Notes: generated by a model from the letters alone, not told the origin. DNA of 60,898 nt from a virus (IMGVR_UViG_3300030328_000942:1-60898), one strand, 5' to 3'; shown: positions 5,324-60,254, counted from the stretch's first letter. Translations and numbers: made by a program.

Positions 5324-5339
5324 GACCAATGAGTGACAA

Positions 5340-9801: not shown

Positions 9802-10141
9802 TTACTACTATGAAGTAGATGATTGGTTTGTAGATAGATTAAAATCTTTACCAAGACAACACGGTATTGAAATAGCATCAATGATTGATTTCAACTTTGA
9901 TATTTTACCTGACCGAATAGGGTGGACTCAACACGTAGGAGGAGTGTGTACCAAATATAAAGACCCAATTTATTTTGAAGTAGAATATTTAAAAGAACCA
10001 ATGCAACCTCCTATCTTTTTAGATATAGACCTCATTGAGGTAGATGATTACCTCGACTATATATTAGATAAAAATATACTTATAATTAACTCCAATGATA
10101 AAACCGATTGTCCAACACCAAGTCAAGCAGACGCTCCTTAA
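9770..10141 (+). CDS. Hypothetical protein
   Basis: ORF track. Confidence 0.7.
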   Translation: MESKQKYIQDNYYYEVDDWFVDRLKSLPRQHGIEIASMIDFNFDILPDRIGWTQHVGGVCTKYKDPIYFEVEYLKEPMQPPIFLDIDLIEVDDYLDYILDKNILIINSNDKTDCPTPSQADAP

Positions 10142-11822: not shown

Positions 11823-11838
11823 GTGTCTTTGAAGACAC
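11823..11838 (-). repeat. 16-bp palindrome copy 7 (TTTGAA on +), exactly filling the gap between the two convergent genome arms
   Basis: Lies between the TAA ending at 11822 and the minus-strand stop at 11838. Confidence 0.95.
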
Positions 11839-14800: not shown

Positions 14801-17800
14801 TACTACGTTTCATTTTAGCTCTTTGCTCATCCACAAGACGCATAACCTTTTCCATTTGCCTCTGCATCTGCTCAGGTGTTTTTATGTCATTCACGGCATT
14901 AATAAACCTATTTATCTGTGCTTGAGTATAATCTTGTGACTTAGGTAGTACAGTTCTAATATAATTTTTTAGTTGGGTTTTTAATTCTTGTAAGTTTTGA
15001 GCCCCTATAGTTCTGTCCTTTAAGGTTTTCTTTAATTGGGAAATTTGTTGAGATACATTTTTATTTCCTCTATACCCAAGACTTCTATCTAAACCTACAC
15101 GTAGTTCCATTTGAACTGTGTCAGTTTGTTGTTTGTATGTTGGGTGTGCTTGAATTAACTCTTGAGCTTTTTGTCTTATCTCTGAAAAAGTTTTCACTCT
15201 CTTCTTGCCAATTATATTAGCTCTTCCTGATGTAGCAAATTTTTCTAATGCTATTTTAATGTCATTAAACATTTGAGCCGCCACTTGTATACCGCCCTCA
15301 ACTCTTTGAAACTCAGAAGGCATTTCACCAAACACATCTACTTTATATGTTAAAGCAGTATCTATGTCTGCTTTTTTAAATCCTCTTCCTTTTAAAACCT
15401 CACGAATAGTTGCATCTGAAAACCCATTTTCTCTACCCTTCTTTACTACATCAGTTATAGATAAGTCTGTACTAAATGCTACTTCGGGATTCTTCATCTT
15501 CTTTAACTGACTATCAGTCATAGGTAATTTTTTCCCTGCGAATATATCTGCAAGAGCGGACCCAATAAATTCATCAAGGGTTAAGGCTTGTATTTCTTCT
15601 GCACTTAAGTCTTGGGTTTGTTTAAACTGTGACTTGATATAGTTCCACATACCAAGAAGCCATTCTTTGAACTTAGATTTAATGGAAGCATCCGCTATAG
15701 TTTGACCTTTATTTCCAATCAGAATAGCCATTGTTTCATTAGCTGCTCTTGCTTTATCTCCGTCAAACTTTTTTAGTTGTCGCTGATACTCTTCTGTTTG
15801 TTCTACAAGAGTAACCCCTTTTGCGTAGATAGTTCTACCTTTCTTTGTGGTCTTTAAATAATCTGTCCACACGTGTCCCATCTCGTGAATAGAAGTGTTA
15901 TGCAGTGCAGAAGTGGAATTATGTACGTCAGGATTGATGTATATATCTCCATCCACTGTGACACCATAAACTGTTTGACCACCTTTCTTATACTTCATTA
16001 CATTATCTTGAGACATTACTGTTTCAAAAGTAGCTTTGTCAGTAGTAATATTAGTTTGTGGAAATGATAGATTCATAAATGCAGTTAGCTTAGTTGCATT
16101 GTCTACATTACCTTGTGATATAGCTCCTACAAATTCAAGGTTAGGCATACCGATTTGTACACCAAGCGTTTCGGTAAGTATACTTCCTACACTTGACGGT
16201 GCAAGTTCACCCGCTTCCGGCATAGTTTTTCTATCTTCTACCGATGCCCGTTCTCTTTGTTTCTGCGTAACTTTTTTTCCTTTCGCCTCTGATTTAATTA
16301 ATCCTCCCATAGCATTTTGATATGCTTGAGGAAATGCCTTTACAAGGGAAACAGGATTTTCTAATATTCCTATACTTTTTCCTTTAACACCAAATGGATA
16401 ATTAGGATGAGTGCTTTCTAACACTTCAGGATTTAACACATCTACTCCTTGTAAAGCCACGATGCTTCGATTAGGTACGTTAGCTAACTGTGGTTCTGTA
16501 AGTATATCTGTTATCTCTGCAAGGTGAACTAATTTAAAGGCATCTTTTTCCATACCCTCTATTAATATATTAGGTATAAGTTTTTGTCCTTTAGTTGCCG
16601 TCTTTTTTGTTCCCGGCTTATTTGGTTCACCAAACGTAAATGTTTTAAGAAACTCTGTACGAGTAGGTAAGTTTAGTTTTTGTAAGAACTCTACTGATAC
16701 CACATCATCTAAAGTTTCAGGTTGTTGTTCGTTAATTAATTCTATAACATTTTTAAGTCCCGCTATTTCTTTAGCATAATTTTTATTGGTTAATGGAGAT
16801 TTTTTCCCTGAATCAATAGCTGCTTGTTTAGTTGCAATCTTTTTGTTTATCGCCCCTACAAGAGCCTCTAACGCCTTTTTACGGTTAACCTCAGGTATCT
16901 TACTTAAGTTGTCTCTAAACACTCTAAAAGTAGCCTCATTTGAAAGGATAGAACCTTCACCCATTTTTACTACCGGCATTGGAACAAGACCGTTGTATTC
17001 CGGATTGGCTGCCCAAAACTCTTCAAAGGTTGGTTTGTTTGCTTCGTAAACTGCAGTAGCTTTCTCTATTATATTACTTGCCTCTGTGTCTGTGGTGTTT
17101 GCCCAAGCTAAGTTTTGATTACCTTCAGTTCCTGTAAATCCTATACCTCCTTTTAAATTATCAATCGTGGTATTAGTTTGAGGATTCACAACATTACCTG
17201 TAGTAAGTTGGTCTGATATAGTAAATATAACAGGGACTCCATTAATAATTTCTAAAGACCCAATACTATTTATATCTGAATCAGTCCTTTGGTTTATATC
17301 ATTTACATCTATTGTAGACTCACTAACTGTTTCATCTAAATTAGTTTCTACATTTCCGGATGCTAACTCATTTATAGCCTCAGTAATTTGTGCTACCTCA
17401 TCTGTGTTAGGAACAAACTTACCTTCTTGCTTAAACTGTACATTACCATCTTCAATACGAGTACGTTTATTTCTTAACTCTTCAATTAAAGCTACTTTAG
17501 TTGCTCTGTTTCTTTTAGATTTTTTTATCTCCTCAATTTCAGCATCTATCTTATTTAATTCTTTTTGAATTGTTTTATTTTTTTGCTTATTGATTTTATT
17601 TACACGAGCTACTTCTGCTTTATATTCTCTCTTTAATTCTTTTATATCCTCTTTGTAGTTATCGATTTCCGCTTTTGCATCTTGTCTTAAGTCTGCTTTT
17701 TCTGCACTTGTTAGTCCTTTCTTTGCAAGGTCTTTTTTTAGTTGTTGTTTAGTATTTTCAATCTCAACATTTATATCTTCAATTTCTCCATCAAGCTCAG

Positions 17801-20800
17801 CTTTCGCATCTGCTTTAATCTCTGCCGGAGTAACCGGAGTGCTAAAAGTATATTCATCTCCAAACCCCTCTTCGGTTTCTGCTTCTTCTTTTGTTGCAGC
17901 TCTTTTCCCTTTCTTTGTAGACACCTCTACAGGTGGGGTAACTTCTTCTGTAGTTACTTCTTCTGTAGTAACCTCTTGTGTAGGTGTAACCTCTTCGGTA
18001 GCTACATCTTCTGTCGCTACATCTTCTTGGAATTTCGGAGGTGTTTTATAGTCTTGATACAAATGTTCCGCATTTTTTTCTGCTTGTTTTTTGGTAGGAA
18101 AATATTCAATGATATACGCCTCTTCCAATCCTCTTACGGGACTATCAAAACCGGTATCATCAAAATCCTCCGTGACCTCCATAGTTACACTCCATCTTCC
18201 ATCAGGGTTAACCGCTTCTCCCACTTCATTTATTTTCCCTCTATTTTCAATTGTAAACTTATAAAGAGGTGTTGTCGCTACATATACCCCTGCTCTTTGT
18301 TTCTTCCACTTTAGCTTCTTAGGTTGTTTTTTTATTGCCGCTTCTATCTTCGCTTTTTTCTCAGCCGGAGTAAGCTCGGTAGTAGATTCAACAACAGTTT
18401 CTCCCTCTAACATAGCCTCCATTTCAGCAACTGATTCTGCTTGTGTCTTTGAAGACACCATTTCATCTACACGCAATTGATTTGCACGAGTTTTTACAAC
18501 TCGTTTTTGAAATTCAGAAAGTTTTTGATTGGCTATTTGTTTGTCTGCAATACCTGCAAGTATTCTATCAAGACGGGATTGGTCAATAGTTTTATTATCA
18601 TAAGCTTGAACATCAGCTATAGTGGGTTGCTTAAGAGATTTAGGAACAACAATAGTTTCTGATTCTGTATCTACTGACACCTCCGCAGCTTTACGTTGTT
18701 TGTTTTCTTTGAAGATTCTTGCTGCTTCATTCATATTAGCAAAACTTTCTTCACGCAACTCAACTGCTTCTTCATTGGTTATATCACCATTGTTTAGAGC
18801 TTGTGTAATAGCTTTTGTTTTTTCTCTTCTTTGTTTACCTGTATCTTCATTTACTTCTATGGATGATAAAGGGTTATTCCCCACCACCTGTGGTGTTTCT
18901 ACCTCACTCTCCTGAGTGGTCGTAGATTCTGTGGTTTGTTCTTGAACGCCCCGTAACGATTCTTCCATCGTTTCCATATTTCCGGTTTGTTGATTTTCAT
19001 CCACTGTTCCTGTTTCTTGCTTTGAAATGGCATCTTGTCCAAATTTATCGGTTACTAATTCACTTACTTTTTCATCGTTGTCTATCGTTATGTTTGCTGC
19101 TTTTAATTCTTTAGGGGACATATCCATTATACGGCTCAAAAATTTTGAACGCTTCAGTGATTTCCCGTCTATTGTATATTTTGATTTTGCATCTGTTCTA
19201 ATGTCTACACCGGAAGTTTGATTCTCATTTAGACCTACAATCCCTGCGAGGTTAGTTTGAAATCCTTGTCCAAAAGTATTGCCTTGTTCTATTTGTGTAT
19301 CAGTAGCTGACTCAATATTTGGTCTAACAGTTTTAGTCTCTACCAACTCATTAAGCTCGGCTTTTATTTCTTTTAATTTACCTGAGAAAACTTCCCTTCT
19401 ATTAGATGAAGATTCAAGCTCTTGTTTTGCTGCCATCAACTCCATCGTTCTATTCAATACTTCAGGTGAAGATTTACCTTCTGTGGCGTTTAAAACATTT
19501 TGTGCGTCTTGCCTTAAGCCTAAGTTTACCTGTATTCTTTGGTTAGTTTCTGTGCTTATCTGTCCAAGCTTGTGCATATTGTTTGCCCAACTTGAAACCT
19601 TTGTAGGACTTGGAGCAAAAAATCCTTTAAGCTCATTATTTAAACCTCTTATAGAAGAGATGTCATTAGCTATAGTAGTGTTGTTTTGTGCACGTAAATC
19701 TAAAGCCGTATTTAGAGCCGCAAATGGAGCGTTGTTTCCAAGACCACCCATTGCTTCTGCAAATATCTCCTTCATCTCTATTTTATCTCCGGCTGAAATT
19801 TGTGCTGCTAATTCACCTGTCGCTTCTGCAAAAGGGTCAAACACTACACGTTCTCCTAATTGCACCGCTACTCTTCGTCCAAAAGAAGCAGTCTTTCCTG
19901 CGTTAAATACTCTACCGGCTAAACCTGAAGACAACATATCTACCACCGCAATTGGAATACCTCTTTGTGCTCCTCTCACATTTCCTTTCTTCCACACTAA
20001 AGGGTCGTTTAAAGCGGCAGTCATATCTTCAGGGTCATTTATATTATAACCCTCTTTACGAGCTACATCTAAAATAGCATTCGTGTATTCTAATGCGTAG
20101 GATGTGGCTGCAAATCCTGTCCTTAAACCCCATATAGCTCCGGCTGCTGCACCACCTCCCGTAGTAACTACACCACCGGGTCCTGTAACAAAACCTGTAG
20201 CACCTATACCTGCACCTATACCTGTTCCGGTTGCAGTTGTAGCTGCAATAATTTTAGTACCATACGGCAGCATTTGGTTTATACTATTAGCCGCCATACT
20301 AAACATCAACTCTGCGGGATTATCAGAGAATGCATCCCAAGCCTCACGAAAACCTTTAGCTCTATGCCATCTTCCCATAGCTCTACTTGTTTCTTCTGTA
20401 TTACTTGCATCTAAATAATCTACTATTCTTTGTGCAAGTTCAGCCGTGCTTTCATCGTCATCACCTTCAAGACCTAATGCCATTTTTAATATTTCATTAC
20501 CGGCTTTACCTCTATACCATCCTTCATCTACTTGCTGCATAAAACCTCCCCAATTATCTACAAGCTCTCCTCTTAAATTTTCATCAAACTTTCCGCTTAA
20601 ATAGGTTTGGGCTACTTCATATTCATTAGCAGCCAATGATGATACATCTTTAGTTGCTTTATAAGATGTAAGAATTGCATCTTGCATCTCTTTACCATCA
20701 TCATCTGTGGCGTTGTAATCTTTTAATTCATCTATGGTTAGTCCAAACTCTGCTAAAGATTTAGCCTCTAATTCATTACTAACATATTTTGCAGATGCGT

Positions 20801-22373
20801 TAGACCTTGCTGCATTACGAGATAATTTTTGATATTGTTTATCTATATAAACATCAAAATCTTCTTGGACCTCTTGAAGGTCATCATCTAAATACACATC
20901 TTTTAAAGCATTAAACTTATCCTCTTCAATTTTTAAAAGCTCTTCTGCGTCTTGTCTTAAATAACCTTTTGAATTATAAAAGTCTCCAAACATCTCTTGC
21001 TCTTCTTCGGTAAGGCTATCATAATTCCTTGCACCCCACTTTATTTCATCTTGTAAATGATAAAATCTCTCACGTGCATTTTCGTATGCTTCATATTGGT
21101 TTTTAATATTTAGGTAATCATAACCTCTGTCTTGAAAAAATCGTTGTCCTTCTGCATCTATATTTCTTACATCTTTCCAACTACCTTTTGCAAACTCTTT
21201 AGCTTCCTTATCTGTTTTAAAAATAAAAACCTCGTTTCTTTTTAACGCCTCTTCATAAGCATCCATACCATCTAACTCGTTCCAATATCGTGGGTCCGCA
21301 TTTGATATTTCAGGATTTATCGGAAATAAAGTGGGGTATACTACAAACTTTCCATCAACTTCTCCTGATTCAAACAGTACAGTAGACTCAGTACCATCAT
21401 TATTTAAACGAGGTGTATCTCTTAAATGTTGAGCTTTTATAGCTGAAGTTACAAAATCACTTTCTGCTTGTTCTCGGTTTTCATCCGGATTTTGAGCGTA
21501 TTGTTTAACGAAATTTTTTAATTTTTCTGATTCTTCGGCAGCAGTAGAGTCAAAGAAAGGGTCTAAATCTATTTCAATTTTTTTAACATCACCATTGGGT
21601 AAAACAATAGAACCTTCCATTGCGTCCCCTATGCTTATTTCCCTAAAATTAAACCCGTACTTTCCGTAAATAGAATTAAAATAAGGAACTGCATCTTCTT
21701 CCTGTAAGTTTATTTTTGCAGCATCAGTAGCGTTAAGTGCTTGTTGAAATCCCTCATCAACTTGAGCCATCTCATTACTCGCTATAGTATCTTCTCCCTT
21801 TCCTTTACGGGTTGCTTTCTCTTTAGCTTGGGTAGCTAATAGCTCCGGATTTTCTTCTTGAATTTTTTTGGAAGTATATTCAATGTCAGCACGTTGTTGT
21901 GCATAAGCTCTTGTGTATGCATCTTCCCCTCCTTCAGGGTACATACCAAGTGCTCTTATAGGGTCTCTATAATCATCATCTCTTGTGTCTTTAGGGATAA
22001 TTTGGTCGGGGTCATAATTAATTTTGAAATCATCCCAATTAGTTATTATTCCAACTTCAGTTTCGGATGAATCCGAAGAACCAATTTCCGAAGGAGAGAC
22101 CGTATCGTCTTTTTTTTTTACTTCAGGATTTAAAGGGTCTAAATCTACAACTTCTTCCTCTTGAGTAGTAATTCCAATATCCCCTAAAAACGTAGTAATG
22201 TCTACTTCAAATTTAAAAGACTCATCAAGTGAGCCTAAGTATTGATATATCTGAGCCGCATATTGCTTATCTGCCATATCCGCTATAAATTGGTCTTTAC
22301 TTACATCGCCTTGAAAAGTAGCGTCATTAGTACCAAGATAATCGTACAACTCAACTAAGTATTCTTCATTCAT
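11838..22373 (-). CDS. Giant (3511 aa) probable internal virion/ejected protein with a zincin-like HExxH motif
   Basis: Last gene of structural arm; HEMGH motif; Gly/Ala-rich hydrophobic segment; long coiled coils. Confidence 0.7.
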   Translation of the reverse strand: MNEEYLVELYDYLGTNDATFQGDVSKDQFIADMADKQYAAQIYQYLGSLDESFKFEVDITTFLGDIGITTQEEEVVDLDPLNPEVKKKDDTVSPSEIGSSDSSETEVGIITNWDDFKINYDPDQIIPKDTRDDDYRDPIRALGMYPEGGEDAYTRAYAQQRADIEYTSKKIQEENPELLATQAKEKATRKGKGEDTIASNEMAQVDEGFQQALNATDAAKINLQEEDAVPYFNSIYGKYGFNFREISIGDAMEGSIVLPNGDVKKIEIDLDPFFDSTAAEESEKLKNFVKQYAQNPDENREQAESDFVTSAIKAQHLRDTPRLNNDGTESTVLFESGEVDGKFVVYPTLFPINPEISNADPRYWNELDGMDAYEEALKRNEVFIFKTDKEAKEFAKGSWKDVRNIDAEGQRFFQDRGYDYLNIKNQYEAYENARERFYHLQDEIKWGARNYDSLTEEEQEMFGDFYNSKGYLRQDAEELLKIEEDKFNALKDVYLDDDLQEVQEDFDVYIDKQYQKLSRNAARSNASAKYVSNELEAKSLAEFGLTIDELKDYNATDDDGKEMQDAILTSYKATKDVSSLAANEYEVAQTYLSGKFDENLRGELVDNWGGFMQQVDEGWYRGKAGNEILKMALGLEGDDDESTAELAQRIVDYLDASNTEETSRAMGRWHRAKGFREAWDAFSDNPAELMFSMAANSINQMLPYGTKIIAATTATGTGIGAGIGATGFVTGPGGVVTTGGGAAAGAIWGLRTGFAATSYALEYTNAILDVARKEGYNINDPEDMTAALNDPLVWKKGNVRGAQRGIPIAVVDMLSSGLAGRVFNAGKTASFGRRVAVQLGERVVFDPFAEATGELAAQISAGDKIEMKEIFAEAMGGLGNNAPFAALNTALDLRAQNNTTIANDISSIRGLNNELKGFFAPSPTKVSSWANNMHKLGQISTETNQRIQVNLGLRQDAQNVLNATEGKSSPEVLNRTMELMAAKQELESSSNRREVFSGKLKEIKAELNELVETKTVRPNIESATDTQIEQGNTFGQGFQTNLAGIVGLNENQTSGVDIRTDAKSKYTIDGKSLKRSKFLSRIMDMSPKELKAANITIDNDEKVSELVTDKFGQDAISKQETGTVDENQQTGNMETMEESLRGVQEQTTESTTTQESEVETPQVVGNNPLSSIEVNEDTGKQRREKTKAITQALNNGDITNEEAVELREESFANMNEAARIFKENKQRKAAEVSVDTESETIVVPKSLKQPTIADVQAYDNKTIDQSRLDRILAGIADKQIANQKLSEFQKRVVKTRANQLRVDEMVSSKTQAESVAEMEAMLEGETVVESTTELTPAEKKAKIEAAIKKQPKKLKWKKQRAGVYVATTPLYKFTIENRGKINEVGEAVNPDGRWSVTMEVTEDFDDTGFDSPVRGLEEAYIIEYFPTKKQAEKNAEHLYQDYKTPPKFQEDVATEDVATEEVTPTQEVTTEEVTTEEVTPPVEVSTKKGKRAATKEEAETEEGFGDEYTFSTPVTPAEIKADAKAELDGEIEDINVEIENTKQQLKKDLAKKGLTSAEKADLRQDAKAEIDNYKEDIKELKREYKAEVARVNKINKQKNKTIQKELNKIDAEIEEIKKSKRNRATKVALIEELRNKRTRIEDGNVQFKQEGKFVPNTDEVAQITEAINELASGNVETNLDETVSESTIDVNDINQRTDSDINSIGSLEIINGVPVIFTISDQLTTGNVVNPQTNTTIDNLKGGIGFTGTEGNQNLAWANTTDTEASNIIEKATAVYEANKPTFEEFWAANPEYNGLVPMPVVKMGEGSILSNEATFRVFRDNLSKIPEVNRKKALEALVGAINKKIATKQAAIDSGKKSPLTNKNYAKEIAGLKNVIELINEQQPETLDDVVSVEFLQKLNLPTRTEFLKTFTFGEPNKPGTKKTATKGQKLIPNILIEGMEKDAFKLVHLAEITDILTEPQLANVPNRSIVALQGVDVLNPEVLESTHPNYPFGVKGKSIGILENPVSLVKAFPQAYQNAMGGLIKSEAKGKKVTQKQRERASVEDRKTMPEAGELAPSSVGSILTETLGVQIGMPNLEFVGAISQGNVDNATKLTAFMNLSFPQTNITTDKATFETVMSQDNVMKYKKGGQTVYGVTVDGDIYINPDVHNSTSALHNTSIHEMGHVWTDYLKTTKKGRTIYAKGVTLVEQTEEYQRQLKKFDGDKARAANETMAILIGNKGQTIADASIKSKFKEWLLGMWNYIKSQFKQTQDLSAEEIQALTLDEFIGSALADIFAGKKLPMTDSQLKKMKNPEVAFSTDLSITDVVKKGRENGFSDATIREVLKGRGFKKADIDTALTYKVDVFGEMPSEFQRVEGGIQVAAQMFNDIKIALEKFATSGRANIIGKKRVKTFSEIRQKAQELIQAHPTYKQQTDTVQMELRVGLDRSLGYRGNKNVSQQISQLKKTLKDRTIGAQNLQELKTQLKNYIRTVLPKSQDYTQAQINRFINAVNDIKTPEQMQRQMEKVMRLVDEQRAKMKRSIIREIISTAKKKSSTRKQSGKRRPKGLDNVGVLFFENAKQILKALSLTDPEARAIAIQEVKTDLEARQDELAAAYELMMNDQELTAEQENLVQKQAAFDMFADLETASLEEAQQVLNDMKGVAKESILRMNNRRLQEQADAASLKEELDTQIQETNPDLFNEDGTLKGEAQRTADKEQIRQNFIKRGIRNVVDKITDALFGRTNSALSSFKNSLTNLQTVTNFLDNKNRKLTLFTDKVYRKLTRTREVSLQNIRTMKQTLNDFATESGIENGFLGVERKLNSLLGFNYRGIINTKTFNLKENVVRKGKRQVNEYKTELNANQMLRLYALYKNDVQRKKLINQGITPEVMAEIEATLGPELLSFADKMVNYLSTDYFNEVNSVYKQANGVSLGFVENYFPTKIIKPKVDGNMLVDGDFSKIFNAETAPAFKDRTDFGSDIDLKGGTFTGVLMNHMETMETYKAYAMPVKEINNFFKVESVNVLLEETGMAGLTRMLVNAAVNPRAAAQASMMSKTKAGRVGRDILSKFQSFFTSWALGLKLVQIPKQATSFVNAYSKYNYFPKNSNIPSVVQSAVDAVMFPVDLVGVLLDIGKGLLGKKGAIAKMREKSALFDQRIREGLEGDIYGLESGSQTYKEAGQGTSYLARIRRKVKQIAAAPTILGDILGVMGYYINYKRNIANGMTEAEALEAFNAYESTQQTRSNTEKVPLQLQGDFQSRVFTMFGSTLFLQMNNVMQNATNMRRAFRDAIDKKESFFGKKGIQKEDIRSFYLNAAVANALFVGVSNLALLTRGDKDDQDLFYKKVGEALMGMNLLYQIPLFGAYIEELNAKWMYDKPRKVDDVVNPIKSIDRKVTKLMESDNAFEKYVQPIAEIVLKTQLDPMVALYNAIQDGTFGDVSEKEFYENIYELLGVTPSYRPGHGRRGPNLEGVIPEGGIRTKTQLKRYDPELYEKIYGRRDAIEKEKREIRKEALRKRGYVERNGKLYKID
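17936..18028 (-). repeat. 15-bp degenerate tandem repeat encoding a (T/A)EEVT-type linker in the giant protein
   Basis: EDVATEDVATEEVTPTQEVTTEEVTTEEVTPP. Confidence 0.7.
18443..18458 (-). repeat. 16-bp palindrome copy 8, inside the giant-protein CDS (VSSKT)
   Basis: Read directly. Confidence 0.95.
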
Positions 22374-36168: not shown

Positions 36169-36207
36169 AAAAAAAAGGGAAGTGTCTTTAAAGACACTCC
36201 CTCTTTT
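36169..36207 (-). terminator. Terminator after the major capsid gene; stem built on palindrome copy 10 (36182-36197)
   Basis: Minus strand GAGGGA-GTGTCTTTAAAGACAC-TTCCC-TTTTTTTT. Confidence 0.8.
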
Positions 36208-51909: not shown

Positions 51910-52344
51910 TTGAACAACGACTATTTAAAATATTGGCGAGTAATACGTCAATATATAAAAATAAAATACGGACTAACTCAGTCTGATTTAGATGTAATAC
52001 TTTTTTTAAATTCCGAAGATTACTTTTCCAAAGATAAGTTTGAAGAGTTTGATAGAATCTTATCTTGGGATGAGAATCGATTTAATAAGCTATTAAGAGA
52101 TGGATGGGTAGAGGTATTTAGAAAACGAAAAGGAAAGACTAAAGGATTATACAATCTATCTTATAAAGCAAAAAGAGTTATTACTTCAGTATATAAAAAA
52201 CTTAATGGGGAAGAACTCCCTACATCTCCTTCGCAGAACCCTATGTTCTTAAAGAATGTTTCCTATAGCGATAGAAGGTATAGAGAAGCTATTATAAATA
52301 TGAATGAGTTTATAAGACAACAACGACATCTCTCTCCTGAATAA
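51910..52344 (+). CDS. Winged-helix (MarR-like) DNA-binding protein; only rightward gene in the late arm
   Basis: YGLTQSDLDVILFL...LLRDGWVEV...YNLSYKAK pattern. Confidence 0.6.
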   Translation: MNNDYLKYWRVIRQYIKIKYGLTQSDLDVILFLNSEDYFSKDKFEEFDRILSWDENRFNKLLRDGWVEVFRKRKGKTKGLYNLSYKAKRVITSVYKKLNGEELPTSPSQNPMFLKNVSYSDRRYREAIINMNEFIRQQRHLSPE

Positions 52345-52567
52345 TTGTAACAGTCTCACTGTTGATTATTAAAGTGTAAGAGTTTCGTGTGTCATAATAG
52401 ATGAGGTCATCTTTTTTTAAATTACAACATTCAGAACCCGGTAAAATAATTTTACCCTTTTGATATCTAAAAGATTGTGCATCTTCATTAGATAATAACA
52501 AACCGCTTTCGGTTTTAATCTCTTCTTCTATCTTTTGTATTACTACGTTTTTTCCTATTGCTTTCAT
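52310..52567 (-). CDS. groES: Co-chaperonin GroES-like
   Basis: MKAIGKNVVI...KTESGLLL...G.I...G...DDLIYY...ERDVV; downstream of groEL. Confidence 0.85.
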   Translation of the reverse strand: MKAIGKNVVIQKIEEEIKTESGLLLSNEDAQSFRYQKGKIILPGSECCNLKKDDLIYYDTRNSYTLIINSETVTIIQERDVVVVL

Positions 52568-52795: not shown

Positions 52796-54400
52796 TTATT
52801 TGGTGTCATAACTACGTGCCATTGTTACAATTGCATTGGTAGATAAAATAGTAACCGCTACCGATACTGCATTCTGTAAAGCTTGTCTTGTAACCTTAAC
52901 AGGGTCAATCACCCCAAGAGTCATTAGATAGCCATACTTTTCTTTTTTTACATCATATCCATATAGAGCTCCTTTACAATCATCATAGATTACATCAGCA
53001 TCTAATCCTGCGTTCTCTAAGATTTGATAAAGCGGTGCTTTAAGGGATTCAGCTAAAACTGCGTAAGCAGTTTTTTTTGCGTAATCTTTTTCAGAAGATT
53101 CTTTTATAGAATAACTTTTATGAAAGTTGTATAATGATAATCCACCTCCCGGTAGTATACCTTCTTCAAGTGCAGAGCGTACTGCACATACCGCATCATC
53201 TACACGGTCATATAATTCTTTCTGCTCAAGGTCAGTGTTACCTCCCACATATACCACTCCTATCCCACCGGATAGCGAAGCAATACGTTGGTTAATAAAC
53301 TCACGGTTTGTTTTATCTTTTTCATTTTTGTGAGCCTCCTGAAGTTGAGCTATTCTTTCAGTTACTTCTTCTGTCGTCTCTTCATCATCCTTGACGATGA
53401 CCGTTGAGTCCCGGCTAACTATCACCTTAGCACAGTGACCCAAATCGTTGAAATTAATCAAACTCAAGTCATCGCCTGTCTTTTCACTAAAATACTTAGC
53501 ACCTACACTTATCGCAATATCTTGCATAAGCTCGTGTTGCCTGTATCCAAAGTCAGGAGGGTTTATCGTACAAACCTTTAATCCATTCTTAATTACATTA
53601 GCCGCTAAAGTATTTACTACATTAGTTGAGCAATGACCAATCAATAAAAGTTTTTTACCTTCATTGATAATTGGTTTAAGAACATTTTCAATTTGTAATA
53701 TGTTATTTATCTCAGTGTCGCATACTAATACATAAGTGTCTTCAAAGACACACTCGTCTCTCTTTTGGTCATTGATAAATAAGTTAGATGCATATCCTCT
53801 TTTTACCTTAATCCCTTTTGTGGTTTCATAATAGGTTGAGGAGGTTTTACTTTTCTCTACTGTTACTACACCATCTTTACCTACACTCTCATACACATCA
53901 GCTATGATATCACCCACTTGCTTATCATTGTTCGCTGAGATAATAGCTACGTCACGTAATCTTTTTGGGTCAAGTGTTTTACCTTTTACCTTTAGCGACT
54001 TCGATATCTGTTTGGTTTCTTCTACGATGTGTCTTAATACTTCGGTTCGATTGTCGTTATCAATTAATTCGGTTCCTGCATTTACTAATGCCTCTGCTAA
54101 TACAATAGCAGTTGTGGTTCCATCACCGGCTGAGGATGCAGTTCTATCGGCTGCCTCTTTCATCATCCTAACCGCAAGGTTCTCTACCGGGTCTAATAAT
54201 GAAATAGACTTCGCTACAGTCACACCGTCTTTTGTTACAGTGATTCCGTGTAAGTGTTCGGGTGATTCTATTAATACAGTATTACCTCTTGGACCTAATG
54301 TTGACTTAACTGCATTAGCTATTTTATTTATACCGCTTATAAGTTTGGTTCTACCTTCATCAGAAAAATGAAGTTCTTTGGGAGTGAATCCTTGTTGCAT
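52796..54400 (-). CDS. groEL: Chaperonin GroEL-like
   Basis: STLGPRG, TKDGVTVAK, AGDGTTTA, EGILPGGG, GVIDPVKVTR. Confidence 0.97.
   Translation of the reverse strand: MQQGFTPKELHFSDEGRTKLISGINKIANAVKSTLGPRGNTVLIESPEHLHGITVTKDGVTVAKSISLLDPVENLAVRMMKEAADRTASSAGDGTTTAIVLAEALVNAGTELIDNDNRTEVLRHIVEETKQISKSLKVKGKTLDPKRLRDVAIISANNDKQVGDIIADVYESVGKDGVVTVEKSKTSSTYYETTKGIKVKRGYASNLFINDQKRDECVFEDTYVLVCDTEINNILQIENVLKPIINEGKKLLLIGHCSTNVVNTLAANVIKNGLKVCTINPPDFGYRQHELMQDIAISVGAKYFSEKTGDDLSLINFNDLGHCAKVIVSRDSTVIVKDDEETTEEVTERIAQLQEAHKNEKDKTNREFINQRIASLSGGIGVVYVGGNTDLEQKELYDRVDDAVCAVRSALEEGILPGGGLSLYNFHKSYSIKESSEKDYAKKTAYAVLAESLKAPLYQILENAGLDADVIYDDCKGALYGYDVKKEKYGYLMTLGVIDPVKVTRQALQNAVSVAVTILSTNAIVTMARSYDTK
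53736..53751 (+). repeat. 16-bp palindrome copy 12, inside groEL (CVFEDT)
   Basis: Read directly; the only asymmetric copy oriented against local transcription. Confidence 0.95.
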
Positions 54401-55498: not shown

Positions 55499-56146
55499 AT
55501 GAGAAATTTAATGCAAATCGAGGCAGACTTTTTAGCATCTGCACAAGTTCGTAGCCAAGTTAACTTTGCTACAATCGAGAATCTAATCACTGAGGTAGCT
55601 GATGCGAAGAAATCGAAGTTCGACAAATCACTGAAGTTAGCGAAGTTAGTACACGAATCTGTAGTATGGTTTAACGAAGATAGAACTAAGACTCAGTTAG
55701 AGGAGGAAGGAATCGAATGGAGCAATGTAGAAGTATTTTTTAACAGAGTATTTGGATGGCAAAAGTCGTTTGGCTACAAGATGGCTAAGGCAGGTAAATT
55801 ACAATTTACTGAGCCATCTGTGGTTACGAAGTTCAAGAGAAAATGTACTACTGCAGAGAACAATGGCGAGGATGTAAGAAGAAGTATTGAAGCTTTATTG
55901 AAGTTCGCTAAAAATGAGGAGAATGGTACAGAGGGAGAGAATGAGGTTAGCAGAGGGAAAGCATTGGCAACATTCAGTATCGCTAAAGATGGATTGAATG
56001 GTGACAAAGGAGTTTCTGCAAGACTTACGAGAGATGGTCAAGTATCTATTAGTGGTGAATTTGAAAATGAGGATGTTTCAAGAAGAGTAGCGGGTTTATT
56101 CGCTGAGTTGAAATTGGAGTTAGAGAGATACAATCTCAATCAGTAA
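55499..56146 (+). CDS. Hypothetical early protein
   Basis: ORF track; first gene of rightward arm. Confidence 0.8.
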   Translation: MRNLMQIEADFLASAQVRSQVNFATIENLITEVADAKKSKFDKSLKLAKLVHESVVWFNEDRTKTQLEEEGIEWSNVEVFFNRVFGWQKSFGYKMAKAGKLQFTEPSVVTKFKRKCTTAENNGEDVRRSIEALLKFAKNEENGTEGENEVSRGKALATFSIAKDGLNGDKGVSARLTRDGQVSISGEFENEDVSRRVAGLFAELKLELERYNLNQ

Positions 56147-56160
56147 TCAAACAAGGGGTA

Positions 56161-56176
56161 GTGTCTTCAAAGACAC
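56161..56176 (+). repeat. 16-bp palindrome copy 14; extended hairpin 56154-56182 abuts hammerhead 1
   Basis: AGGGGTA-palindrome-TATCCT. Confidence 0.95.
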
Positions 56177-56181
56177 TATCC

Positions 56182-56232
56182 TCTGTCCACAGATGAGTGT
56201 CTGTGCTGATGAGTTCAAAAGAACGAAACAGA
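56182..56232 (+). ncRNA. Hammerhead ribozyme 1 (type III), predicted cleavage GUC^ after 56187
   Basis: UCUG-UC | CACAGA-UGAGUG-UCUGUG | CUGAUGA | GUUC-AAAA-GAAC | GAAA | CAGA: full core and three stems. Confidence 0.92.
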
Positions 56233-56258
56233 AAACCAACAAATAATTAAATTAAATT

Positions 56259-57266
56259 ATGAGAAATTTAAGTCAAAATGGAGTTACTTTCACTACTCAC
56301 GATGAGCCATCGAGAGCGAGAGTTTCTTCTTATGGGAGCAAACCGCTACCATACAAAATTAACAAAGCTGAGTCTGTTGATATCAATGGGCTACCGAGCA
56401 GTGCAAGAAAAAACTTGTACACTGCTGATGGCGGAACAGAGTCATTGTTCACTATCGGTATGGAGTTCGAAAAAGTTCGCTTTCATAGAGGAGCAGTGCA
56501 AGAGTATGCATTGTTCTGCGGATTTGAACACGATGGTAGTTGTGGAGCTGAAGCAGTTACTCACATCTTACCATTGGTAGATAAGTCAATGTGGAGAACG
56601 AAAGTTTTCAATATGTTTGCTGAAGCGAAGAAAATCATTGAGGATGAGTATTCTCCATCTAATGTGAAGTGCGGTGGTCACATTACATTGGGAGTTAAAA
56701 ATGTAAGTGGTAGAGAGTTATCTGATAGACTGAAGAAGTTCAGTGGATTAGTGATGGCTATCTACAGACACAGAGTCTGTAACTACTACTGCAGAGGTAA
56801 CTTTAGAATGGACACATCTGATGAGTATGGTAGTAAGTATACTATTGCTAACTACAAGACTCTTGGTGATGATGGAGTAGTTGAGTTTAGAGTTCCATCG
56901 AGATTCACATCAGTGAAGCAGACAATCCGAAGATATGAGTTCTTTTATCAGATGGTTGACTTTGCGATGAACAAACAAAATTCATCTCTACATCATTTCT
57001 GTAATGCGGTTAGACCAATCCTAATGTCTATGTATGATAACGACACTGAGAAAGTTAACAAGACCATCGAGTTAGCAAAGGAGTTTCAAAAGGTTATCAA
57101 TGGTGGTAAGATTGATGAGAAGACTTGCGGATGGTTTGAGGGATGGTGGAGTTCTAATACTCAGTTAAACTATTTCTTCGGTGGAAGAAGAAGTGACTAC
57201 AAAAGGAATTTCAGTCCATCTGAATACACAGATGTAAGGAAGTTCAAAGAGGAGCAATACTTTTAA
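56259..57266 (+). CDS. Putative amidoligase (COOH-NH2 ligase, glutamine-synthetase-like fold)
   Basis: IGMEFE, HDGSC..EAVT, CGGHITLG, VEFR motifs. Confidence 0.7.
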   Translation: MRNLSQNGVTFTTHDEPSRARVSSYGSKPLPYKINKAESVDINGLPSSARKNLYTADGGTESLFTIGMEFEKVRFHRGAVQEYALFCGFEHDGSCGAEAVTHILPLVDKSMWRTKVFNMFAEAKKIIEDEYSPSNVKCGGHITLGVKNVSGRELSDRLKKFSGLVMAIYRHRVCNYYCRGNFRMDTSDEYGSKYTIANYKTLGDDGVVEFRVPSRFTSVKQTIRRYEFFYQMVDFAMNKQNSSLHHFCNAVRPILMSMYDNDTEKVNKTIELAKEFQKVINGGKIDEKTCGWFEGWWSSNTQLNYFFGGRRSDYKRNFSPSEYTDVRKFKEEQYF

Positions 57267-57273
57267 CCTCAAC

Positions 57274-57301
57274 ACATCCTAAGCAAGATGTAAAACTGCT
57301 T
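57274..57301 (+). ncRNA. H-type pseudoknot immediately 5' of hammerhead 2
   Basis: ACAUC/GAUGU stem; loop AAGCA pairs with downstream UGCUU. Confidence 0.6.
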
Positions 57302-57352
57302 TCTGTATGGTAGTGAGTGCTACCACTGATGATGCCAAAAGGTTGAAACAGA
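57302..57352 (+). ncRNA. Hammerhead ribozyme 2 (type III), predicted cleavage GUA^ after 57307
   Basis: UCUG-UA | UGGUAG-UGAGUG-CUACCA | CUGAUGA | UGCC-AAAA-GGUU | GAAA | CAGA. Confidence 0.85.
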
Positions 57353-57376
57353 TAAATAAATTTAAATTAAATAAAA

Positions 57377-57595
57377 ATGAAAACATTTAACACATTTCAA
57401 AACGCAACGCTTAACCTAATCACATTAATGGTCTATTCAATGGCAGTTAGAGTTCTAATTGACATATGGGTAAACAATGTAAATGATTTTAGGTGGATAG
57501 AACTAACCTATGCAAGTGCATCGAGCATCTTTGTAGCGATACTTGGTTGGTTTCTGCTATTGATAAACATCTCAGTATGGAAAGAAAATAAGTAA
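57377..57595 (+). CDS. Small two-TM membrane protein
   Basis: Two hydrophobic segments; flanked by hammerheads 2 and 3. Confidence 0.7.
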   Translation: MKTFNTFQNATLNLITLMVYSMAVRVLIDIWVNNVNDFRWIELTYASASSIFVAILGWFLLLINISVWKENK

Positions 57596-57659
57596 GGCAT
57601 ACTGATGAGTTCTCAATGAACGAAAGGGTGGTGTCTTCAAAGACACTACTCTCTATGTC
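57596..57659 (+). ncRNA. Hammerhead ribozyme 3 (type I) whose stem III is palindrome copy 15 (57631-57646); cleavage CUC^ after 57653
   Basis: GGCAUA | CUGAUGA | GUUC-UCAAU-GAAC | GAAA | GGGUG-GUGUCUUCAAAGACAC-UACUC | UC | UAUGUC. Confidence 0.88.
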
Positions 57660-57686
57660 AAACATTAAAATAAGAAACGATTAAAT

Positions 57687-58052
57687 ATGAAAACTTTAAC
57701 ACAATTACAAGAAGATTTTAAAGCATTAAACGATAGCTATAAAGCCAATCCATTACCTGCAGGAAAAGAATACAATGCATTTGTTAAGAAATGGAAGAGA
57801 CTTGAAGCTAAAATTAGAAACTACAATAACTCTACTAACATTATGAAAAGAGATGGACTTAAAGTTACTAAGCAATTCGCTGATTATAAAGTTGAATTTA
57901 AAGGAGTTGTTGCTCTAGTTTTTTTAGATGGATGTGTGACAGACTATTGGGCAGTTAATGTAATAGAAGGAAATGTAGAGTTTGAAATTGAAACTTTTGA
58001 AACTAAAGCCGAAGCAATTTGGTACATATATTCAGAATTAAGAAACGATTAA
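57687..58052 (+). CDS. Hypothetical early protein
   Basis: ORF track. Confidence 0.75.
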   Translation: MKTLTQLQEDFKALNDSYKANPLPAGKEYNAFVKKWKRLEAKIRNYNNSTNIMKRDGLKVTKQFADYKVEFKGVVALVFLDGCVTDYWAVNVIEGNVEFEIETFETKAEAIWYIYSELRND

Positions 58053-58075
58053 ATAACAATTAAAATCAAATAACT

Positions 58076-58489
58076 ATGGAAACAATTAAATTTAAAAATG
58101 TAGAGCCAAGTCACGAAGTTGAAAGAGACTTTGACTTGAAGTACGAAAGAATCAAATCTGTTTACAAAGGCAGAATAGATGCTTGTACTTGTGGGTGTGA
58201 GGGAGAGTTCCATTACACTAAACACTTTGCTGAGTACAAATCTAAAGTTGAGGGCAACGACTTACTACTACCATTGGCAGACGATGGTGAAGTTGAGTTT
58301 CTAATCCAAGATGCTTTAGTTTATTCTGACACTGCAAGATTCTTTGTGCAGATGAGTGGTGGATACTGCATCAAAGTTCCTACTCACACTGAGTGGAAAG
58401 ATGCAGAGGGTGGATATGTTCAAATGGGTTACATCATTGACTTACATTGGAAGGACATCAAATTAAATCAAACTAAAATAAATTTATAA
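58076..58489 (+). CDS. Hypothetical protein with CxCGCxG motif
   Basis: SVYKGRIDACTCGCEG. Confidence 0.75.
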   Translation: METIKFKNVEPSHEVERDFDLKYERIKSVYKGRIDACTCGCEGEFHYTKHFAEYKSKVEGNDLLLPLADDGEVEFLIQDALVYSDTARFFVQMSGGYCIKVPTHTEWKDAEGGYVQMGYIIDLHWKDIKLNQTKINL

Positions 58490-58491
58490 TT

Positions 58492-58821
58492 ATGGAAACT
58501 AAATTCGAATGGACTGATGAAGCAGTCAAATCATTTACACAAGTCTACTCTTCAAACTTTAGTAGCAAACTTGTAGACTTTCCTTGTAGCTACAAGGACT
58601 ATAGTGGAAAGAACATCCACGAGAAGATGGAGCAGTTCAAGTTGGACTACAAGCCACAAGAGAAAGTAACATATTGCATCACAATTAAATCTGTGTATGG
58701 TAACTATGGAACAAATGTCAAAGAGTTCAACAACGAAAAGCATTTCGAGAATTGGTATGCAATGATGAGTCGAAAGGGACACAAGATAGTTGGAGTTGAA
58801 TTATTAAAAGGCGAGGAATAA
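58492..58821 (+). CDS. Hypothetical early protein
   Basis: ORF track. Confidence 0.75.
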   Translation: METKFEWTDEAVKSFTQVYSSNFSSKLVDFPCSYKDYSGKNIHEKMEQFKLDYKPQEKVTYCITIKSVYGNYGTNVKEFNNEKHFENWYAMMSRKGHKIVGVELLKGEE

Positions 58822-58982
58822 TGGAAAGACAGAAATACTTTAAGGTCAGATATGCAGGGAAGCTAATTCAAGTTATCCCTGCTCACACGAAATGGGAAGC
58901 AATCGATAGGGTGTACCACGAGAACATCGGAAAGTACAAATGGATTGTCAGAGAAAAATTTACTGCCGTAATCAGTAGATAG
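58821..58982 (+). CDS. 53-aa hypothetical protein
   Basis: MERQKYFKVRY...AHTKWEAIDR...*; TAATG coupling. Confidence 0.6.
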   Translation: MERQKYFKVRYAGKLIQVIPAHTKWEAIDRVYHENIGKYKWIVREKFTAVISR

Positions 58983-58994
58983 ATAAAAAAAAGA

Positions 58995-59026
58995 TTTGGT
59001 AGTGTCGATTTATTGTCGTATCTTTG
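58995..59026 (+). promoter_or_regulatory. Bacteroidota sigma-A-type promoter (TTTG-20 nt-TATCTTTG)
   Basis: Perfect consensus match. Confidence 0.8.
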
Positions 59027-59054
59027 TCTAAATCAAACATTAATCAGTAGTTCT

Positions 59055-59070
59055 GTGTCTTCAAAGACAC
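59055..59070 (+). repeat. 16-bp palindrome copy 16, in the 5' leader of the GATase-GGCT gene
   Basis: Read directly; ~30 nt downstream of the -7 box. Confidence 0.95.
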
Positions 59071-59091
59071 TGCTACACAAACAGAAACACT

Positions 59092-60165
59092 ATGTGTATT
59101 ATTATTGTAAAACAAAAAGGTCAAGATGTACCAAGAGAAATTCTCAAAACATCTGCCCGTATTAATCCTCACGGATTAGGAATCGTATGGCTCGATACAT
59201 ACGAAGTAACTTATCACAAATCAAAGGAGTATAATTTACTTGACAACAACAGACCATACATCGCACACTTTAGATATGCGACCATTGGTAAAATCTGTAA
59301 AGAAAATACTCATCCGTTTGTATGCGGGAATAATAAAGATGAGTTACTAATGATGAACGGAACTGCTCACGGATATGGAAGTAAGGCGATGACAGATACA
59401 GAAGACTTAGCAATCAGACTTGGTAAATCATCAAGACAAAGTTGGGCTAAGCAGTTGAAGAAGTTCGATGCGAGATTCGTATCCATCAACACAAGAACGA
59501 GGTCGTTTCAAATCTACAACAAGTTGGCTTGGAAAAAGAGAGATGGTGTATGGTATTCAAAAGGCAATGTGTTGGAAGATAATCTTGTCGCAGTATATGG
59601 CACACTAAAGAAAGGTTATGGAAATTACTATAGCTACCTTACCTCATCCAAGCATCTTGGTAATGGAACAACAAAAGAGAAGTATCCATTGGTGGTCGAT
59701 GGACTACCTTACCTCATCGAAGAAAAAGGAAAAGGGTACAATGTAAAGGTTGATGTGTTTAAGGTCAGCGATGACAAGCTAAAACATTTAGACCAATTGG
59801 AATCTCATCCACGATGGTATGTGAGAAAACAAGTTCCAATCATAGTGAAAGGTAAAGAGTTACTATGTTGGGTGTACTTTAATCCATCTGCTAAATCAAG
59901 ATGGAATGGCTCAAACCATACTGAGTCTTACGAATATCAAAGACCAAATAATTATTTCAGATATGTGGAGGAGCCACAGATAGTTGTGGATGATAGGCAA
60001 ACGAATATGTTTGATGACTTAGGTGAGTGTGATGTAGAATCATCCTCTCCTTACTGCATCGAATGTTTCAATGACTTAGTATACGATGGCTTAGGAAACG
60101 ACTACCAATGTGTAGGGTGTGGTGCGGTATACGAGAAGTCAATGATAGAAAGTACAAATTGTTAA
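59092..60165 (+). CDS. Class II glutamine amidotransferase fused to a gamma-glutamylcyclotransferase (AIG2-like) domain and a C-terminal Zn ribbon
   Basis: N-terminal MC, NPHGLG, HFRYATIG, NTHPF, MNG; VYGTLKKG...LDQLE; CxxC...CxxC. Confidence 0.85.
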   Translation: MCIIIVKQKGQDVPREILKTSARINPHGLGIVWLDTYEVTYHKSKEYNLLDNNRPYIAHFRYATIGKICKENTHPFVCGNNKDELLMMNGTAHGYGSKAMTDTEDLAIRLGKSSRQSWAKQLKKFDARFVSINTRTRSFQIYNKLAWKKRDGVWYSKGNVLEDNLVAVYGTLKKGYGNYYSYLTSSKHLGNGTTKEKYPLVVDGLPYLIEEKGKGYNVKVDVFKVSDDKLKHLDQLESHPRWYVRKQVPIIVKGKELLCWVYFNPSAKSRWNGSNHTESYEYQRPNNYFRYVEEPQIVVDDRQTNMFDDLGECDVESSSPYCIECFNDLVYDGLGNDYQCVGCGAVYEKSMIESTNC

Positions 60166-60181
60166 TTGTTGGTTGGGGGTG

Positions 60182-60197
60182 GTGTCTTTAAAGACAC
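60182..60197. repeat. 16-bp palindrome copy 17; extended hairpin 60175-60204 abuts hammerhead 4
   Basis: GGGGGTG-palindrome-TGCTCCC. Confidence 0.95.
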
Positions 60198-60203
60198 TGC
60201 TCC

Positions 60204-60254
60204 CGTGTTTACGGATGAGTGTCCGTACTGATGATTCCGAAAGGATGAAACACG
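60204..60254 (+). ncRNA. Hammerhead ribozyme 4 (type III), predicted cleavage GUU^ after 60209
   Basis: CGUG-UU | UACGGA-UGAGUG-UCCGUA | CUGAUGA | UUCC-GAAA-GGAU | GAAA | CACG. Confidence 0.85.

Follow-up and report, generated by a model that had tools for sequence, protein, structure and literature searches.

Why would a self-cleaving ribozyme in a phage genome begin exactly where a strong RNA hairpin ends? The viral genome IMGVR_UViG_3300030328_000942:1-60898 (complete, 60,898 bp, 35% G+C; "the window" below is this whole stretch) carries four predicted hammerhead ribozymes, HH1 to HH4. Three of them are joined to a hairpin built on the same 16-nt palindrome, GTGTCTTYAAAGACAC (PAL), which is a 5-6-5 inverted repeat. 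The original prediction treated palindrome and hammerhead as one dedicated RNA-processing circuit, in which the hairpin either protects the 3' end that cleavage makes or lets a protein tune the ribozyme. Judging from sequence comparisons, we think it fairly probable that hairpin and hammerhead form a natural intercistronic RNA-processing cassette, which would leave the upstream mRNA with a hairpin at its end and the downstream mRNA with a 5'-OH capped by the ribozyme.

Hammerheads and adjoining hairpins

A scan with our own descriptor, which demands the core features and stem pairing, found exactly four hammerheads in the window (Table 1), each of them intergenic, among early genes, and on the + strand; 30 mononucleotide-shuffled windows gave none. 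HH1, HH2, and HH4 are type III and HH3 is type I. All four have the invariant core (CUGAUGA and GAAA, the A15.1-U16.1 pair, and a nucleotide other than G at position 17), a criterion that is built into the descriptor, and their cleavage triplets are GUC, GUA, CUC (U16.1-C17), and GUU. The simpler pattern CTGATGA-N8-36-GAAA has six matches in the window versus 1.6 expected, and four of these are the hammerheads. At E-values up to 10, Rfam reported no ribozyme class other than hammerhead in the window.

HH1 and HH4 start at the base of an extended palindrome hairpin, as originally predicted, and the coordinates given for these hairpins were correct. Hairpin 1, which begins 8 nt past the stop codon (56144-56146) of the open reading frame (ORF) at 55499-56146, extends PAL by six flanking pairs (two of them G-U; + strand only). 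Hairpin 4 begins 8-9 nt past the stop codon at 60163-60165 and has eight flanking pairs, of which four are G-U. The final base of each hairpin is shared with, or adjoins, the first base of stem III. In minimum free energy (MFE) folds, hairpin 1 is kept, and hairpin 4 and its hammerhead coexist with no gap between them. HH3 begins immediately 3' of a stop codon (57593-57595) and has GGCAUA/UAUGUC as its stem I; PAL lies within its stem III, which was also predicted, and the MFE fold yields all three stems. The distance from the PAL core to the predicted cut is 11 nt in HH1, 7 nt in HH4, and 12 nt in HH3, in agreement with the 7-12 nt first claimed. HH2 lacks PAL and has only a weak 5-bp hairpin (57274-57291), 10 nt upstream.

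We also considered that the 3' arm of PAL might pair with GUGUC of the stem I loop, but the MFE folds retain the PAL hairpin. Nor do the hammerhead-adjacent hairpins look like intrinsic terminators: they have no run of uridines (U-run), and their 3' flank is a strand of stem III (UCUGUC or CGUGUU).

Table 1. Coordinates of the hammerheads, hairpins, palindrome sites, and genes discussed in the text. Positions are in the window unless an accession is given.
Feature	Position	Strand	Details
HH1, type III	56182-56232	+	Cleavage predicted after C56187; ATG of ORF 56259 is 26 nt downstream
HH1 stem I	56188-56205	+	
HH1 core	56206-56212	+	CUGAUGA; stem II is GUUC/GAAC
Extended hairpin 1	56155-56182	+	GGGGUA, PAL core 56161-56176, UAUCCU
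HH2, type III	57302-57352	+	Cleavage predicted after A57307; ATG 57377 is 24 nt downstream
HH3, type I	57596-57659	+	Cleavage predicted after C57653; ATG 57687 is 27 nt downstream
HH3 stem III	57626-57651	+	12-bp hairpin: GGGUG, PAL 57631-57646, UACUC
HH4, type III	60204-60254	+	Cleavage predicted after U60209; ATG 60276 is 21 nt downstream
Extended hairpin 4	60174/5-60204/5	+	PAL core 60182-60197 (TTTAAA centre)
PAL before GATase/GGACT fusion gene	59055-59070	+	21 nt upstream of ATG 59092; no hammerhead or stem extension
PAL at hairpin apex	5298-5313 (hairpin 5293-5326)	+	Terminator-like hairpin with U-run; no hammerhead
PAL at hairpin apex	36182-36197 (hairpin 36170-36204)	-	Terminator-like hairpin with U-run; no ribozyme
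PAL in GroEL gene	53736-53751		Antisense to gene; no stem extension
GroES gene	52310-52567	-	
GroEL gene	52796-54400	-	
Giant ORF	11838-22373	-	3511 aa
DnaA-C HTH protein 1	2854-3147	+	Domain E 7e-13
DnaA-C HTH protein 2	10095-10628	+	Domain E 2e-7
elemoB hammerhead-like match	NC_062741.1 19025-19080	-	R1 38.1 bits; core CUGAAGA
elemoF hammerhead-like match	NC_055853.1 17866-17921	-	R1 38.1 bits; core CUGAAGA

A PAL scan of viral contigs returned at least 120 stretches, and in the PAL loci listed, the descriptor found at least 15 further type III hammerheads, most of them a few nt after PAL. From 18 type III copies we built a covariance model (R1). This model scores HH1 at 80.3 bits and HH2 at 68.6 bits, both sequences being in its training set, and a search of the listed PAL loci with R1 gave no copies beyond the descriptor's. 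Among the 18 copies, 13 of the 16 pairs have double-sided changes, in all three stems, and 96.5% of cells are paired versus 32-45% in slid controls (the rows had been preselected by a descriptor that demands pairing). The stems covary, but the loops of the type III copies are strongly conserved: stem I has UGAGUG or UGUGUG (in the window, at 56194-56199, 57314-57319, and 60216-60221), and stem II has AAAA or GAAA. These loops probably contact each other in the tertiary structure of this hammerhead lineage.

Five complete relatives (G001-G005, 58-64 kb) have 9-15 PAL sites and one to four type III hammerheads each. Across the window and these five genomes, PAL with at most one mismatch lies 0-8 nt upstream of 13 of 16 type III hammerheads; with two partial contigs added (L004 and L064, for eight contigs), it precedes 17 of 20 (rough binomial p ~1e-43). 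The three without PAL are HH2 in the window and the copies at L099 2155 and L101 1639, which have another hairpin in the same slot. In a sister clade (G006 and G007), whose GroEL proteins are 59-61% identical to the window's, all five hammerheads are preceded by a different palindrome, GAGGGTTCAAACCCTC (PAL2), with arms GAGGG and CCCTC around a TTCAAA centre. In G009, all five are preceded by GTGTC-N6-GACAC. Over the eleven related contigs, the genome's signature palindrome is found 0-8 nt before 27 of 30 type III hammerheads, and the palindrome hairpin and the hammerhead do recur as a composite.

The type I form recurs as well. HH3 has a near-identical orthologue in L204 (9476-9539), and the stem III of another type I hammerhead (L192, 3088-3153) holds PAL-like GTGTC-N6-GACAC. 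The scanned loci contain 22 plausible type I copies, in many of which stem III is a long, GC-rich hairpin; a type II hammerhead was not found in ~2.1 Mb of loci. In both topologies the predicted cut is 2-8 nt 3' of a strong hairpin, and the proposed order of strong hairpin, few nucleotides, and cleavage site holds for type III and for type I (HH3 and the copies in L204 and L192).

We also sampled hammerheads without reference to PAL, by scanning viral contigs for the ribozyme core with a common stem II. The complete scan gave 86 stretches with 117 non-redundant type III hammerheads, after a spurious minus-strand row (L222) was dropped. A perfect hairpin of at least 5 bp ends at most 9 nt upstream of 105 of the 117, and the gap from hairpin to stem III is -1 or 0 in 82 of these 105. 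The mean MFE is -12.5 kcal/mol for the 36 nt upstream and -2.1 for the 36 nt downstream. Stem III beyond A15.1-U16.1 has 3-5 bp in 109 copies, the first ATG is mostly 19-30 nt 3' of the ribozyme, and the cleavage triplets are GUC (77), GUA (35), or GUU (5).

By the apex of the hairpin, 44 of the 117 are of the GTGTC..GACAC type, 19 are GNRA-like, 5 are UUCG-like, 37 are other, and 12 have no hairpin. Since only 44 are PAL-type and the rest are varied hairpins, the ribozyme slot needs a hairpin, not PAL. The palindrome is not specifically required. That hammerheads are kept beside arbitrary hairpins was named in the original prediction as evidence against it, and in this wider set it largely holds (61 of the 105). 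By these counts, the cassette of hairpin, hammerhead, and leader is generic and widespread in marine phage contigs, and the architecture is far more general than the original prediction could see. In several unrelated contigs (L177, L193, and L194), what precedes the hammerhead is not a simple GC hairpin but a different conserved word, AUCCUGAG(C/U)A(U/A)GAU...AAACUGCUC, perhaps a structured element of another kind.

The pairs that extend PAL distinguish the ribozyme-associated copies from the others. Flank positions 1-4 of 43 PAL-type hairpins before hammerheads pair in 84-95% of cases on the sense strand, where 21-33% are G-U, and in 63-72% on the antisense strand. At 65 PAL sites away from hammerheads (in six genomes), the flank positions are 37-46% paired. 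By this pattern of pairing, the hairpin is selected at the RNA level, and only beside ribozymes.

A proposed intercistronic cassette

The type III cassette consists of a stop codon, ~8 nt, a stable hairpin, the hammerhead, an A-rich leader of 20-30 nt, and an ATG. The hammerhead's stem III, open and short (3-5 bp), begins on the last base of the hairpin. We propose that the hammerhead cuts the polycistronic early transcript co-transcriptionally, 5-7 nt beyond the hairpin on its 3' side. This cut would give the upstream mRNA a strong terminal hairpin and a very short tail with a 2',3'-cyclic phosphate; such an end would be a poor substrate for 3' exonucleases, and the upstream mRNA would be stabilised. 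The downstream mRNA would start with a 5'-OH buried in stem I, the ribozyme body would act as a cap-like 5' structure, and ribosomes could enter on the unstructured leader past the ribozyme. For HH3, the type I version, the hairpin would be stem III itself, with the product geometry unchanged.

A protective 3' end, which was one of the two roles first suggested for the hairpin, fits the distribution of upstream cistrons. For 115 cassettes with enough flanking sequence, we looked for a co-directional ORF end within 110 nt upstream. Such an end was found for 96 cassettes with a hairpin (none for 7) and for 7 cassettes without a hairpin (none for 5), for an odds ratio of 9.8 (Fisher p 0.0028; the statistic ignores relatedness). 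In 3 of the 7 hairpin-less cassettes with an upstream ORF, there is a PAL-type hairpin (0-3 mismatches) ~20 nt upstream. We also count toward this link the match in the cultured phage elemoB, which precedes a divergent unit and had no upstream hairpin to the eye (see below).

Parts of this layout are familiar. In T7 early mRNAs, RNase III makes intercistronic cuts that leave the upstream mRNA hairpin-ended. Our proposal shares the hairpin-ended upstream mRNA, but in T7 a host protein cuts within the hairpin, and here a predicted ribozyme takes its place. RiboJ combines a self-cleaving hammerhead with a hairpin and insulates a cistron; its extra hairpin is downstream of the ribozyme, whereas the hairpin here is upstream. 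The whole order has been engineered in E. coli as ribozyme-assisted polycistronic co-expression (pRAP), with a twister ribozyme. According to the passages on its design, pRAP has the same succession of stem-loop, ribozyme cutting at its own 5' end, ribosome-binding leader, and ORF, and without the stem-loop only the last cistron is expressed (PMC9872166). That the engineered system requires such a stem-loop again fits the protective reading. We regard pRAP as a functional analogue, not as a member of the same family: our cassette is natural and relies on a hammerhead, and the named relatives that share GroEL with its phages (38% identity) infect Flavobacterium.

Intergenic phage hammerheads are already a known kind of element. 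Perreault et al. 2011 described tandem hammerheads in phages and prophages, which are intergenic and flank single genes or short blocks, and proposed that long transcripts are processed into gene-length mRNAs (PMC3088659). The window resembles these in having several intergenic copies in phage DNA. The abutting hairpin, the signature palindrome, and the fixed distance to the start codon are features of the cassettes here that the main-text passages of that paper do not mention, with its supplements outside our scope. A 2019 review considered the function of bacterial and phage hammerheads still largely elusive, and the abutting hairpin goes unmentioned in its passages on them too, again with supplements outside our scope (PMC6765202). 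We found no description of the composite or of PAL in the literature, with subscription journals and supplements outside our scope. The cassette gives these ribozymes a testable job: because the hairpin is near-universal (105 of 117) and linked to the upstream cistron, and because the distance to the start codon is fixed, phage hammerheads may serve to make stable monocistronic mRNAs from phage operons. The natural cassette would then have the same layout that synthetic biologists reached in pRAP.

Several points weigh against our proposal. At its gathering score, Rfam calls none of the four window hammerheads. With E-value thresholds, Hammerhead_3 matches HH1 at 42.4 bits (E 6.8e-6) and HH4 at 35.1 bits (the gathering score is 48.5), and HH2 and HH3 are absent from the output even so. 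(The gathering score is a model threshold and not a biochemical criterion.) Also, the 10.1/11.1 pair is G-C in HH1 and HH3, but it is a U-U mismatch in HH2 and HH4 (57326-57348 and 60228-60250), and it is non-Watson-Crick in 24 of the 117 sampled hammerheads (93 G-C, 19 U-U, 3 A-A, and 2 U-C). Because the selection rules of Perreault et al. rejected candidates with a non-Watson-Crick pair at this position (PMC3088659), some copies may be slow or dead.

Could the hammerhead-like motifs simply be inactive relics or chance matches? The Rfam scores and the mismatches in HH2 and HH4 would be expected from relics. However, the shuffled windows had no matches, every invariant core position is present, all three stems have compensatory changes, and the placement relative to start codons is conserved over the 117 copies. 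The covariation makes inactivity unlikely, and we consider this explanation as a whole extremely unlikely. The recurrence of the 10.1/11.1 mismatch suggests a tolerated variant, and it may even be a deliberately slow natural one. We also noticed that the mismatch usually accompanies a stem II of UUCC/GGAU or UACC/GGUU.

Other reservations concern the counts. The sampled sequences are phylogenetically related, so the counts overstate independence, and the hairpin detector's only position control is the comparison of upstream and downstream MFE. An upstream ORF end was not detected for 7 of the 103 hairpin cassettes, and 7 of the 12 hairpin-less cassettes do have one. The region's sequence is present in DNA runs from marine metagenomes, and the listing of sequencing runs for the region contained no RNA run.

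Finally, the hairpin could be a folding aid: by coaxial stacking on the short open stem III and by keeping the upstream coding RNA apart, it would let the ribozyme fold and cut efficiently, and 3' protection would be incidental. A role in folding or stacking accounts equally well for the strict abutment (0 or -1 nt at 82 of 105 junctions), and it also agrees with the shortness of stem III (3-5 bp in 109 of 117) and with the gap-free coexistence of hairpin and hammerhead in the fold of HH4. But it leaves unexplained why the hairpin is associated with an upstream cistron and why the closed type I forms have a long GC-rich stem III, and tight abutment also shortens the 3' tail, as the protection model predicts. 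We give a folding aid with incidental protection a modest chance; the two roles are not mutually exclusive.

PAL beyond the ribozymes

PAL is much more than a partner of hammerheads. With up to three mismatches, it has 35 strand-hits in the window versus 0.75 expected; the window has 15 exact and 2 near-exact sites, and genomes across the clade have 9-17 copies. Its asymmetric TTCAAA centre is on the gene's sense strand at 10 window sites, antisense at 1, and ambiguous at 1. The copy before the GATase/GGACT fusion gene is kept in G001, G003, G004, and G005, with PAL2 in its place in G006 and G007. Two other copies are at the apex of terminator-like hairpins (Table 1). The one at 36182 has orthologous sites in G001, G002, G003, G005, and G009 and a counterpart with PAL2 in G006/G007; a conserved ORF starts ~30 nt after this conserved hairpin, on the late-gene strand. 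PAL is also found within genes: inside one conserved late gene in all six genomes; antisense in the GroEL gene, where the window, G004, and G005 share the codon position (in the stretch that encodes VFEDT); and antisense inside the SNF2 helicase gene in four to five genomes. Every genome also has one PAL copy in its giant gene, roughly a third of the way along; the sequence around it is not conserved, and the orientation varies. Another copy (11823-11838) overlaps the stop codon of the window's giant gene, between two convergent genes, and has no stem extension; this is a bidirectional-terminator-like position.

Because PAL has this genome-wide life, including intragenic sites, the palindrome and the hammerhead are not one dedicated circuit, and this part of the original prediction does not stand. 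As we read the comparisons, PAL is separate from the ribozyme and has been recruited here as the core of a hairpin by the addition of about four flanking G-C or G-U pairs. At the position of PAL and HH1 (upstream of a 335-aa gene), the orthologous sites in G001, G004, and G005 have unextended PAL alone, so PAL appears to be the older resident, and the ribozyme and the extended stem the add-on.

What is PAL itself for? In the more distant genomes G009 and G010, the arms, GTGTC and GACAC, are constant; the 6 nt between them differ from site to site, and inner positions can be unpaired. There are 17 sites matching GTGTC-N6-GACAC in G009 and 16 in G010, and the reversed control has 0. PAL2 has 8-11 sites per genome in G006 and G007, and its placements match those of PAL: ahead of all five hammerheads; upstream of the GGACT gene in G007, 17 nt from its start; and, matched by form alone, in a U-run hairpin of terminator type at G006 11440. 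At the sequence level, then, the word has the fixed half-sites, fixed spacing, and free centre of a dimeric site. Since clade-specific 5-6-5 arms are replaced at matching sites, we infer that there is a sequence-specific, probably dimeric, factor for which PAL is the site, and the binding of such a phage-encoded factor is PAL's most likely function. The swap of words between sister clades would place this factor in a widespread marine phage group. Other over-represented words, such as DNA uptake sequences and repetitive extragenic palindromic (REP) elements, also occur in coding and non-coding DNA and are reused at the apex of terminator hairpins; PAL differs in being a 16-nt 5-6-5 palindrome in a 60-kb phage that is swapped at matching sites in a sister clade.

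One of the two DnaA-C helix-turn-helix (HTH) proteins, the one encoded at 2854-3147, has an orthologue in each of the nine related genomes. In five of the six PAL genomes its presumed recognition segment is H-S-S/T-I-I-H, and in the sixth, G003, it is H-P-P-I-I-H; G006/G007 have H-T-T-I-M/L-Y, and the Y is also found in G009. Because this segment differs between the palindrome clades, the protein is a candidate for the palindrome binder. The difference is confounded with phylogeny, so this is a lead only.

Alternatively, PAL could work as DNA, being an operator or other protein site near gene starts that happens to share the short spacers before genes with hammerheads, and the hammerheads would trim 5' leaders. 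The 5-6-5 architecture with clade-specific arms suits a DNA site, as do the copies of PAL ~20 nt upstream of ATGs that lack a ribozyme, the PAL-only sites orthologous to that of HH1, the presence of two DnaA-C HTH proteins, and the hammerhead-like matches in 5' leaders of the cultured elemo phages (see below). However, a DNA site does not explain the sense-strand-specific G-U stem extension, which is found only at hammerhead sites, or the exact 0-nt junction, or the non-PAL hairpins in the same slot. Also, the Bacteroidota promoter consensus is TTTG-N17-23-TANNTTTG, and this pattern is not enriched in the window, with 7 matches versus 4.7 expected. We think it very improbable that PAL acts beside the ribozymes as DNA alone.

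A sequence that fits this consensus, TTTG-N20-TATCTTTG at 58995-59026 (+), lies ~30 nt upstream of the PAL site at 59055, and G001 and G004 retain its TAnnTTTG part at their orthologous sites. If it is a promoter, then PAL would sit near +20 of the 5' leader; this is also a lead only.

The second role first suggested for the hairpin was a protein-responsive ribozyme, in which a palindrome-recognising phage factor binds the RNA hairpin and tunes cleavage, product stability, or translation. This would explain why the palindrome is invariant while its flanks and the ribozyme stems covary, and why 27 of the family's 30 hammerheads use their own genome's word. The switch from PAL to GAGGGTTCAAACCCTC at matching sites in G006/G007 (the hammerheads, the GGACT 5' untranslated region, and the terminator-like hairpin) would follow too, as would the centre's orientation, which follows the gene strand at 10 of 11 assignable window sites. 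But arbitrary hairpins serve most hammerheads, even within the family (at L099 2155 and L101 1639), PAL is also antisense in the GroEL and helicase genes, and the free centre in G009/G010 looks more like a site on double-stranded DNA whose half-sites are separated by one helical turn. A protein-responsive ribozyme is, in our view, quite unlikely.

We also speculate that each clade's factor binds its own word (PAL, GTGTC-N6-GACAC, or GAGGGTTCAAACCCTC) in the form of an RNA hairpin, whether this lies at a 3' end made by a ribozyme, at a terminator, or in a 5' leader. This seems unlikely, but if it were true, ribozyme processing would be coupled to factor-controlled mRNA stability or translation, and the factor and the word would be co-evolving. 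A comparison is the histone mRNA 3' stem-loop, which lies a few nt 5' of an endonucleolytic processing site. There too, a conserved stem-loop stands just 5' of the cut that defines the mRNA's 3' end, but that system is eukaryotic, is driven by proteins and small nuclear ribonucleoproteins, and has a proven binding protein, whereas the binder here is only postulated.

Two other roles for PAL were considered and rejected. An N4-type hairpin promoter does not fit, as the giant ORF has no detectable similarity to polymerases and PAL is found in late and coding regions, in both orientations. We dropped a mimic of CRISPR repeats (Racr-like) because PAL is found inside genes and because its conserved part is only 16 nt.

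Genome context and cultured relatives

Genes on the + strand run from ~55.4 kb to the end of the window and from 1 to 11.8 kb, and include small early-type and replication genes; genes on the - strand occupy 11.8-55.3 kb. The products we identified are GroEL, GroES, a primase-helicase, an SNF2-type helicase, a crAss-muzzle-like virion protein, the two small DnaA-C HTH proteins, and the GATase/GGACT fusion. Searches of PHROG, Pfam, and PDB sequences with the giant ORF gave no match; relatives encode homologues of it with 2900-3500 amino acids.

A nucleotide search among deposited phages gave a single weak match. By GroEL, the nearest deposited genome is the uncultured podovirus MW202828.1 (58% identity, ~60 kb), which has no R1 match. 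Next are Flavobacterium podophages of the genus Elemovirus (38% identity, ~60 kb). Two of these cultured phages, elemoB and elemoF, each have a single R1 match, of type III, 15 nt upstream of the gene that opens a divergent unit. At the elemoB locus, where the sequence was read by eye, we saw no hairpin upstream of the match. Both matches are unannotated in the deposited records. Since the elemo phages are cultured, they are a possible experimental entry point.

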